IMG/VR virus record: IMGVR_UViG_2579779084_000015
Length of the DNA: 2,994 nt
Direction: 5' to 3' (one strand)
Source of the DNA: a virus
Lineage: Duplodnaviria; Heunggongvirae; Uroviricota; Caudoviricetes
Of this stretch, positions 1 through 1,780 are shown one piece after another. The notes beneath the pieces were generated by a model that was not told where the DNA came from, did not search any database, and saw only the letters and a program-made list of their open reading frames with translations. Within the stretch, counting starts at the first letter, position 1; every line of letters begins with the position of its first letter. Position numbers and translations under genes: made by a program.

Positions 1-1005
1 TTAATCCTCCGTGGACACTGCGTGGACACTTACGCCACCTTTCAGCGGATTAAGGGCCACCGCATCCTGCAGGTAATCCGGTGCAAAATGCGCATATGCC
101 ATTGTTTGCTGAATGGTTGCGTGACCAAGAATCTTCTGAAGCGCAATAATGTTTCCTCCGTTCATCACAAAATGGCTGGCGAACGTATGCCGCAGCACAT
201 GTGCAGCCTGGCCTTTTGGTAAATCGGGCTTAACTCTTTTCAGCGCCAGGCAGAATTCCCGGTACTTCACCTCAAACAAGCCGCCTGTTTCTCTGGTTTT
301 GATCGCCTCACAAACTGCCTGCGAAATTGGCACTGTTCTCTTCCGGCCATTTTTGGTTTCAAGAAACGTTACACGGTTATGAACTATCTGTTCACCACGA
401 AGCTTACAAGCTTCACTCCAGCGCGCCCCTGTGCTTAAACACAAAAGCGCAACACGCCAGTAGTCGCCCTCCAGTGTATCGAGCAATAGCGCCACTTCCT
501 TCTGTGACAGGAACGCCATTTCTCGTGGAGATACATAAAGAATAGAAATTCCCCTTACTGGATGTTCTGCATCCCAAAGACCTATTTTTTTCAGCACGGT
601 AAACATTCCGGATAACCGATTCATGTACCTGTTAGCAGATGACGGTTTCAATCCATCAGCTATCTTTTGAGAACGCCACGCGATAATTTTCAGCTTATCA
701 AGATCCACAGCCTGCATATCAGCGCCAAGCTCATTAATTATGTTGCGCAGTTGTTTTCGGTCTTCTTCCGCCTTACGCCTGTGCTGGCCGTGATACATCC
801 ACCACAACTCAAGCAAATCATTTAGCGTTCGACGATCACGGTAGCCCTGTATATATTCCCGCTTTTCAGCGTTCGCCATGATGTAGCGTTCAGTGGCCAC
901 CGCTACCGATTTTTTGTCAAATACCTTACGCACGCGCTTTCCCTTGCGTCCGTTCGGCCTGATGTCCAGCAAATAACGACCATCTTCGAGCTTCTTAATC
1001 GACAT
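1..1005 (-). CDS. int: P2-family phage integrase (tyrosine site-specific recombinase)
   Basis: 334-aa ORF from ATG at 1005..1003, preceded by the SD GGAGGG (minus-strand sense, about 7 nt upstream); stop TAA at 3..1. The N-terminus MSIKKLEDGRYLLDIRPNGRKGKRVRKVFDKKS closely matches my recollection of the P2 Int N-terminus. Catalytic-region motifs of tyrosine recombinases are visible: LSTGARWSEA, HVLRHTFASHF and the tyrosine-containing TMAYAHFAPDYLQ. The track's TTG start at 1020 adds 5 residues with no RBS and is not preferred. Confidence 0.93.
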   Translation of the reverse strand: MSIKKLEDGRYLLDIRPNGRKGKRVRKVFDKKSVAVATERYIMANAEKREYIQGYRDRRTLNDLLELWWMYHGQHRRKAEEDRKQLRNIINELGADMQAVDLDKLKIIAWRSQKIADGLKPSSANRYMNRLSGMFTVLKKIGLWDAEHPVRGISILYVSPREMAFLSQKEVALLLDTLEGDYWRVALLCLSTGARWSEACKLRGEQIVHNRVTFLETKNGRKRTVPISQAVCEAIKTRETGGLFEVKYREFCLALKRVKPDLPKGQAAHVLRHTFASHFVMNGGNIIALQKILGHATIQQTMAYAHFAPDYLQDAVALNPLKGGVSVHAVSTED

Positions 1006-1101: not shown

Positions 1102-1689
1102 TCAGCGGGATAATTTTTGTTTTGTTTCGGTTGAACTCTGATCGCCCTCCGAATCGAAGAAGCCATCAAGAGAGAGAGGCGGAGCAATCTGCCCCGTAGC
1201 AGCATTAACTTGATTAAACATCACCCAATCCGAATACTTCCGAAAACGAGGGTGATTCAAAATCAGGAGTAACGTTTCTCCAGGTATCATTCTTCCCAAT
1301 ATTTCATAATTTTTGAGATTGTTTTGAGATACCCCTGTCACCTCTTCCATCGCTCTACGCGACAATCCCTCTGCCTCTCGAATCAGGCGGAGTTTTTCTC
1401 CAAGCTCAGATACCACTTCAGATCCATTACCAGCCAATGGCGTGGGTTCAATTTGCCCATTATCTGGAGACACTTGCCCAGTCATAAGCCAAAGTGCGTA
1501 TTTTTTGAACCTATCAATCTGTAAAACTCGCTCAACCAACTCTGCTCTAGCAGGCTGATGACCTGTTTCATATTTCTGAATAGTATTAAGTGGAATCCCT
1601 GTAATATCAGAGAATTGACGTCTGCTTAACTCTTCCGCCTCCCTCATTCTCATGAGCCTTTGCGAATAGTCTATTGACACGTTTCTCAT
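1102..1689 (-). CDS. Immunity repressor built from two tandem P2 C-like helix-turn-helix modules (single-chain pseudo-dimer)
   Basis: 195-aa ORF from ATG 1689..1687 (MRNVSIDYSQRLMRMREAEELSRRQF...), with the SD AAGGAG at 1707..1702 (12-nt spacing, somewhat long); stop TGA at 1104..1102. Residues about 1-95 and about 100-195 each align to the roughly 99-aa P2 C repressor as I recall it (LMRKSEYLSRQQLADLTGVP...FTKYTLWFMTNQIAPESGQIAP). Module 1: LMRMREAEELSRRQFSDITGIP...RFKKYALWLMTGQVSPDNGQIEP. Module 2: LRLIREAEGLSRRAMEEVTGVS...RFRKYSDWVMFNQVNAATGQIAP. It sits where C sits in P2, between int and a divergent cox. Confidence 0.8.
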   Translation of the reverse strand: MRNVSIDYSQRLMRMREAEELSRRQFSDITGIPLNTIQKYETGHQPARAELVERVLQIDRFKKYALWLMTGQVSPDNGQIEPTPLAGNGSEVVSELGEKLRLIREAEGLSRRAMEEVTGVSQNNLKNYEILGRMIPGETLLLILNHPRFRKYSDWVMFNQVNAATGQIAPPLSLDGFFDSEGDQSSTETKQKLSR

Positions 1690-1703
1690 GTGAGAAATAT
1701 ACT
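1674..1703 (+). promoter_or_regulatory. Candidate early promoter (Pe-like) directing rightward transcription toward cox: -35 TTGACA (1674-1679), 18-bp spacer, -10 TATACT (1698-1703)
   Basis: The -35 is a perfect consensus and the -10 matches TATAAT at 5 of 6, read directly from the sequence. The -35 lies inside the 5' end of the repressor coding sequence and the -10 overlaps the repressor SD on the opposite strand. This fits the face-to-face Pe/Pc arrangement known for P2 and 186. The predicted start site is near 1710. Confidence 0.5.
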
Positions 1704-1722
1704 CCTTTCTAAATTGAGAAAT
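1691..1722. promoter_or_regulatory. Candidate repressor operator: two 8-bp direct repeats TGAGAAAT (1691-1698 and 1715-1722), 24 bp centre-to-centre, flanking the -10 of the candidate Pe
   Basis: Two exact 8-bp direct repeats, seen in sequence. In P2 the C operator is a pair of 8-bp direct repeats flanking the Pe -10 at about two helical turns; this arrangement is analogous. Assigning them to the repressor is inference. Confidence 0.4.
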
Positions 1723-1740
1723 GCAAGAACAACTCAAATA

Positions 1741-1780
1741 GCCAAAATAAGCCTATATAAGCCATTTTTGGCCATTTGGA
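1741..1780. repeat. Four tandem 10-bp-phased repeats GCC-N7 (GCCAAAATAA GCCTATATAA GCCATTTTTG GCCATTTGGA); candidate Cox-box array and/or Pc region
   Basis: GCC recurs at exactly 10-bp intervals four times (1741, 1751, 1761, 1771), each followed by an A/T-rich heptamer, so the units sit on one face of the helix. P2 Cox is known to bind multiple directly repeated cox-boxes with helical periodicity in the Pe/Pc region. The array lies between the candidate Pe start site and the cox start codon. Confidence 0.4.

Follow-up and report, generated by a model that had tools for sequence, protein, structure and literature searches.

A probable Cox operator of phased boxes between the early promoter and cox in a P88-like prophage

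Organisation of the switch region

The window, that is the whole stretch of 2,994 nucleotides analysed here, comes from a P88-like (Xuanwuvirus) prophage of P2 type and carries its int / repressor / cox switch. A megablast search with the window returned P88-like P2-type phages (Xuanwuvirus), e.g. Citrobacter phage Shae_phiSM and P88_4B11. Escherichia coli BCE049 contains a prophage that is 97.5% identical to the window and adjoins pdxB; its RefSeq annotation has the same int, repressor and cox genes, with the repressor start at the equivalent of window position 1689. Small early genes are located 3' of cox in the window. The genes and control features of the region are as follows.

1..1005, minus strand: tyrosine integrase, in the lysogenic operon and downstream of the repressor gene
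1102..1689, minus strand: immunity repressor of 195 aa with two P2-C-type HTH modules, on the expected Pc transcript
1674..1703, plus strand: early promoter Pe, consisting of TTGACA (1674-1679), an 18-nt spacer and TATACT (1698-1703)
1682..1697: probable operator O1 of the repressor, palindrome TTTCTCATGTGAGAAA, located in the spacer of Pe and covering the repressor start codon (1687-1689)
1706..1721: probable operator O2 of the repressor, palindrome TTTCTAAATTGAGAAA, 24 bp from O1 and immediately downstream of the Pe -10
1754..1759, minus strand: candidate Pc -10, TATATA, at the position equivalent to the annotated Pc -10 of P2
1802..2089, plus strand: cox, 95 aa, Pfam Phage_Cox, with its ATG at 1802; its product is the proposed binder of the boxes described below

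The early promoter matches the consensus at 11 of 12 positions, points toward cox and is the sole consensus promoter within 1600-1900. The ribosome binding site of the repressor gene, AAGGAG, overlaps the Pe -10. Since the repressor ATG (1689) sits within Pe, the leftward promoter Pc has to lie within a 66-bp stretch or inside cox. A consensus promoter scan of the minus strand for Pc returned weak candidates only, with no credible -35; as a control, the same scan also missed the annotated Pc of P2. The candidate Pc -10, TATATA, is without the conserved final T, and its last base is A, C or G among the relatives.

The 16-bp palindromes O1 and O2 flank the Pe -10 and have no other occurrence in the window. 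They resemble the O1 and O2 operators of P2 C in being present as two copies that flank the Pe -10, 22-24 bp apart, and both modules of the window's repressor are homologous to P2 C. The two systems differ in that the window operators are each palindromic, whereas those of P2 are 8-bp direct repeats.

The prophage insertion point is found directly upstream of the pdxB start codon (positions 1296-1320 of locus L060 and 2795-2815 of locus L002), with a common core of approximately ATTTTC(A/C)TCAACAAGGATTTTT. Two direct repeats of GTGGACACT lie within the 3' end of int, at window positions 11-19 and 22-30. They fit the arm-site consensus of P2-type Int proteins, tgTGGaCa (PMC3448106), and occupy the position of the annotated P' arm of P2, so that the attP P' arm overlaps the end of int. 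The distance from the attachment core to the P' arm repeats is about 200 bp, roughly twice that in P2. TGGAC within ATTTGGACGA was also considered as an Int arm-type site and was dropped because it is not conserved, most relatives having TTCGAACGA.

The phased array and the cox-boxes of P2

Between Pe and the cox ATG, 38-77 bp downstream of the Pe -10, the trinucleotide GCC occurs on the plus strand at positions 1741, 1751, 1761 and 1771, i.e. exactly 10 bp apart. This agrees with the initial annotation, which had described four GCC-N7 units phased at 10 bp between the early promoter and cox. The pattern GCCN7GCCN7GCCN7GCC has a single match in the window (1741-1773, plus strand), and the fourfold GCCN7 pattern was matched in none of 200 dinucleotide-preserving shuffles. 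When any trinucleotide was allowed, first-order Markov simulations gave a fourfold array at period 10 in 50 of 3000 runs (1.7%), and at periods of 9 to 12 in 202 of 3000 (6.7%). Taken in the window sequence alone, the array is therefore only suggestive and its a priori significance is less than it looks; we judge it to be real because of the comparison with relatives, in which the block is kept in 291 genomes and nine of 12 diverged loci are periodic.

The four heptamers that follow the GCC units (AAAATAA, TATATAA, ATTTTTG and ATTTGGA) contain 7/7, 7/7, 6/7 and 5/7 A/T, respectively. The earlier description of A/T-rich heptamers behind a GCC anchor thus holds for their composition, while the unit itself had to be redrawn: the natural register of the repeat is about wwATAAGCCA rather than GCC plus the following heptamer. 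The array then reads as four boxes.

1735..1744, plus strand: box B1, CAAATAGCCA, with GCC at 1741; present with repressor types A and B and absent with types C and D (see below)
1745..1754, plus strand: box B2, AAATAAGCCT, with GCC at 1751
1755..1764, plus strand: box B3, ATATAAGCCA, with GCC at 1761; positional equivalent of TTATAAGACA in P2
1765..1774, plus strand: box B4, TTTTTGGCCA, with GCC at 1771

Neither flank of the array showed additional boxes in phase. On the minus strand B4 reads CAAATGGCCAA, and it can also be taken as B1 in inverted form. TATATA is at the centre of a 13-bp inverted repeat, CAAATAGCCAAAA / TTTTGGCCATTTG (12 of 13; window 1735-1747 and 1766-1778), which types A and B have and which is missing where B1 is missing.

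The cox-box consensus of P2 is TTAAA(G/C)NC(A/C), with a spacing of 10-11 bp, over the -10 and -35 of Pc (PMC3936717; PMC5009727), and each target of P2 Cox holds six or more boxes and gives a footprint of 70 nt or longer (PMC3936717). The GenBank record of P2 has annotations for both elements of Pe and of Pc (-35 and -10 in each case) and for the operators O1 and O2. In the stretch before its cox gene we found the 10-bp-phased boxes CTAAAAGGCA, TTATAAGACA and TTAAACGCA, the second of which contains the annotated Pc -10 (2131-2136; ATTATA on the plus strand, TATAAT on the minus strand). In both P2 and the window the boxes are direct repeats on the coding strand of cox with 10-bp spacing, and they have in common the 3' half A-A-G-N-C-A. 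The last box is 24 nt from the cox ATG in P2 and 28 nt in the window. One box contains the Pc -10 in P2, and the TATATA of the window is at exactly the same place, the distance from the Pe -10 being 55 bp in P2 and 56 bp to the candidate -10 in the window. This agreement in position supports the earlier proposal that TATATAA could serve as a weak -10 of the leftward repressor promoter, and by analogy with P2 we infer that TATATA (1754-1759) is the candidate Pc -10.

The boxes of the window nevertheless differ from those of P2. Their 5' half is wwATA as against TTAAA, and N is always C; on this alignment of motifs, the GCC of the window is the G-N-C of the cox-box with an invariant N. The dimensions agree with those of cox-boxes (boxes of about 9 bp, with starts 10-11 bp apart), whereas the number does not, with four clear boxes in the window and three in most relatives against at least six in P2. 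In a scan with the P2 consensus only B3, as TATAAGCCA (1756), was within 2 mismatches among the window boxes; the others share with the consensus only the A-G-N-C-A half, while the boxes of P2 itself are here 0-2 mismatches off. Judged by their sequences, the boxes of the window look like a variant consensus for a diverged Cox.

A gene of the Cox family is found just downstream of the array. Its product matches Pfam Phage_Cox (PF10743) with E = 3.4e-23 and 81.7 bits, against a cut-off of 27.5, and aligns with the P2 Cox protein of crystal structure 4LHF over 79 residues (E = 1.7e-26). A search of the genome contigs with the Cox peptide found one locus only, a distant one. Of the P2 Cox residues that are reported to be important for DNA binding or oligomerisation (PMC3936717), R29, D33, R51, K75, R78, W81 and W84 are conserved in the window's Cox according to the alignment with 4LHF, and T25, R30 and R73 are E, T and Q, respectively. 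T25 of P2 Cox has been proposed as a specificity determinant (PMC3936717), and the changed residues would fit a related but shifted box. A comparison of recognition-helix residues with box sequences in 12 homologues gave no clear correlation; the Cox proteins of SEN4 and phiT5282H are almost the same, but phased boxes are present only in phiT5282H.

In two close relatives, L002 and L060, the attP/attL arm was scanned with the P2 consensus and with a position-weight matrix derived from the four window boxes. Neither scan showed enrichment, and the same scans missed the annotated attP Cox site of P2 itself; the lag-10 periodicity in the attP arm was at most 0.49, with only 0.40 for P2's own footprint. 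In the attL arm, outside the window (L060 1476-1510), TTTAAGCCG, TTAAAGGGC, TGAAACGGC and TTAATCCCC are within 2 mismatches of the P2 consensus, as a cluster that is not statistically enriched; these four matches abut the P' arm Int repeats, which is the place of the attP Cox footprint in P2. The word CCATTTGGACG (1772-1782), which agrees with CCATTTAGACG of the attP arm (L060 1431-1441) at 10 of 11 positions, was dropped, as we estimate that chance alone would give about 0.5 such matches in regions of this size.

Conservation and exchange of the array among relatives

We compared 47 related loci, which represent 28 distinct upstream sequences. Across these loci the 62-67 bp adjoining the cox ATG, with the array among them, hardly vary, while the sequences left of about position 1735 fall into four unrelated classes. 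Every class combines a repressor of its own with a repeated motif, likewise peculiar to the class, around its Pe.

Type A: TTTCTCAnnTGAGAAA palindromes; repressor as in the window, and also single-module forms (L006, 107 aa; L004)
Type B: ATGTGATnnAAA direct repeats; repressor of 106 aa
Type C: CAyATCGGGCA direct repeats; repressor encoded by a 117-aa ORF (annotated CDS about 100 aa)
Type D: represented by L046; repressor of 109 aa

Because the array stays nearly unchanged beside four repressor/operator types, it travels with cox and not with the repressor. The O1/O2 palindromes, by comparison, change wholesale with the repressor type. The array thus lacks the two marks of an immunity operator: it does not change with repressor specificity, and it neither overlaps nor flanks the Pe -10.

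Among 5426 complete E. coli genomes, the block adjoins cox in 291. In 69 of these the match begins almost at the start of the query, with 95-99% identity, consistent with the four-unit form; the other 222 match only from window position 1745 on, consistent with a three-unit form without B1. The box count is not fixed at four and varies among lineages. The mosaic joint between immunity region and cox passes through or beside the first box (window 1741-1750 compared with L002 4470-4490). Within the close lineage the GCC columns showed no extra conservation over the spacers (1.17 vs 1.21 variants per column), as the whole block is nearly invariant there.

To look beyond the close lineage, the stretch from -75 to -20 was scored at 12 diverged cox loci; the Cox proteins encoded there have 41-78% identity to that of the window. 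The lag-10 autocorrelation was 0.40-0.60 in nine of the 12, including P2 (0.51) and the window (0.56, in the top 0.1% of the null). The null had a mean of 0.255 and a 99th percentile of 0.42; each of the nine periodic loci was in its top 3% and most were in its top 0.6%. The repeated cores in these relatives are AGCA, GGCA, AGCC or AAGC, i.e. (A)AGC(A/C) or GGCA. The remaining three loci, SEN4, SW3 and Wphi, had no lag-10 periodicity. For Wphi (lag-10 = 0.29) this is expected: its gene order and the role of its Cox at Pc are the same as in the window, but Wphi Cox recognises a 12-nt direct repeat and not phased cox-boxes (PMC5009727). Site architecture therefore varies within the family.

In the repressor two P2-C-type modules are naturally fused in tandem, with 42% and 36% identity to P2 C. 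The type-A module (residues 1-90) is 75% identical to the single-module 107-aa repressor of L006, a locus with the same TTTCTCA/TGAGAAA operators as the window. The type-B module (residues 94-195) shares 93% identity with the 106-aa repressor found in heteroimmune type-B phages (L009, L001). In a sister lineage (L031) the same N module is fused to a type-C module (87% identical). The type-B operator was absent from the window. From these module relationships, the fused protein may be a dual-immunity repressor, and it is more unusual than the GCC array.

A proposed Cox operator over Pc and alternative readings

In our reading the array serves this P2-type prophage as its Cox operator, with three to four direct cox-boxes, one per helical turn, lying over Pc; we assign this reading a probability of about 0.8. 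The suggestion in the initial annotation that such an array marks a Cox-type protein fits well with a true Phage_Cox neighbour, with the 10-bp-phased cox-boxes over Pc in P2 and with the linkage of the array to cox regardless of the repressor. P2 Cox forms a helical filament that has been proposed to wrap DNA (PMC3936717; PMC5009727), and on the same model we infer that Cox would bind at the array, that Pc would start there and that binding would take the filament or wrapping mode.

By analogy with P2, after infection or derepression Pe would transcribe across the array into cox. The winged-helix Cox protein would occupy successive boxes on one face of the DNA, oligomerise via its C-terminal part and wrap the DNA, and the oligomer would occlude the Pc -10 (TATATA, minus strand). 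Synthesis of repressor and integrase would then stop, leading to lytic commitment. With more Cox present, the filament would extend toward Pe, at a distance of 56 bp, resulting in autoregulation.

In general, recombination directionality factors bind to direct repeats spaced by one helix turn (PMC7498355). Apl of coliphage 186, with sites between pR and pL, and Xis of lambda are, like Cox, small winged-helix excision factors that are also switch regulators and that bind repeats of this kind (PMC7498355; PMC3936717). They belong to other protein subfamilies and have other site sequences, and the link is one of principle and not of site homology.

The best surviving alternative holds that the block is the promoter region of Pc, in which phased A/T tracts act as curved or UP-element-like DNA to help a weak promoter and the GCC phasing is an unread by-product. 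It draws on the A4, T5 and T3 tracts that the heptamers carry in 10-bp phase, on the confinement of Pc to the 66-bp stretch or the inside of cox, and on a conservation within the lineage that extends evenly across all 62 nt without a focus on GCC. We regard it as improbable, since the homologous phased boxes of P2 lie in a Cox-bound Pc region, protection of Cox targets from DNase I has been reported (PMC3936717), and what the diverged relatives share is a G/C-containing core (AGCA, GGCA, AGCC) and not A/T tracts. Intrinsic curvature from the phased A/T tracts may contribute, but it does not account for G/C cores that are conserved family-wide.

The initial annotation had also raised the possibility that a two-module repressor dimer, with its four reading heads, reads the four units, in which case the array would serve autoregulation of Pc. 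The repressor does have two HTH modules, and the P2 repressor C influences its own expression (PMC3448106). The comparative data speak against this idea, which we now hold to be very unlikely: the same array stands beside single-module repressors of three or more other specificities, the sequences specific to the repressor are its own palindromes (1682-1697 and 1706-1721), and the array is dissimilar both to TTTCTCA/TGAGAAA and to the type-B operator ATGTGATnnAAA.

Equally slight is the chance of a role at the RNA level, with the inverted repeat 1735-1756 / 1757-1778 forming a hairpin in the cox 5' leader or in an antisense Pc transcript. Although its arms of 22 nt are 77% complementary and are used in the minimum-free-energy fold of 1711-1815, this fold is no better than those of shuffled sequences (z = -1.69; 14 of 200 shuffles at least as stable). 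The three-unit form, which is in the majority, lacks the left arm (B1), so the hairpin cannot form there; no Rfam match was found, and no stem-keeping compensatory changes were seen in the relatives. Chance periodicity in A/T-rich intergenic DNA, for which the 6.7% of simulated windows obtained with full look-elsewhere correction (period 9-12) leaves some room, is contradicted by the comparative data, with nine of 12 diverged relatives 10-bp periodic at the same place and the block kept in 291 genomes, and is the least credible reading of all.

The Cox operator reading can be extended. The array could be a portable cassette of Cox operator plus Pc, which recombines with cox onto different immunity modules through a joint at the first box; three or four boxes would then set different Cox thresholds for the shut-off of Pc, and in the lineage of the window the cassette would be paired with the fused two-module repressor and possible dual immunity. 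We offer this as a tentative proposal that is more likely wrong than right; if it were true, the switch could combine a standard Cox operator with dual immunity.

We take the array to be the local member of a well-described kind, the cox-box operator of P2 over Pc, with a variant box, and it is ordinary for this phage family. The mechanism is already established for P2, and the array opens no new question about it. The P88-like group, beside pdxB, is found in about 5% of complete E. coli genomes, and the lysis-lysogeny switch of the group can now be annotated by homology with Pe, the repressor operators, a probable Pc and the Cox operator. Taken with the substitutions in Cox (T25 to E, R30 to T), the variant cox-box ATAAGCCA could be of use in working out how Cox proteins select their sites.
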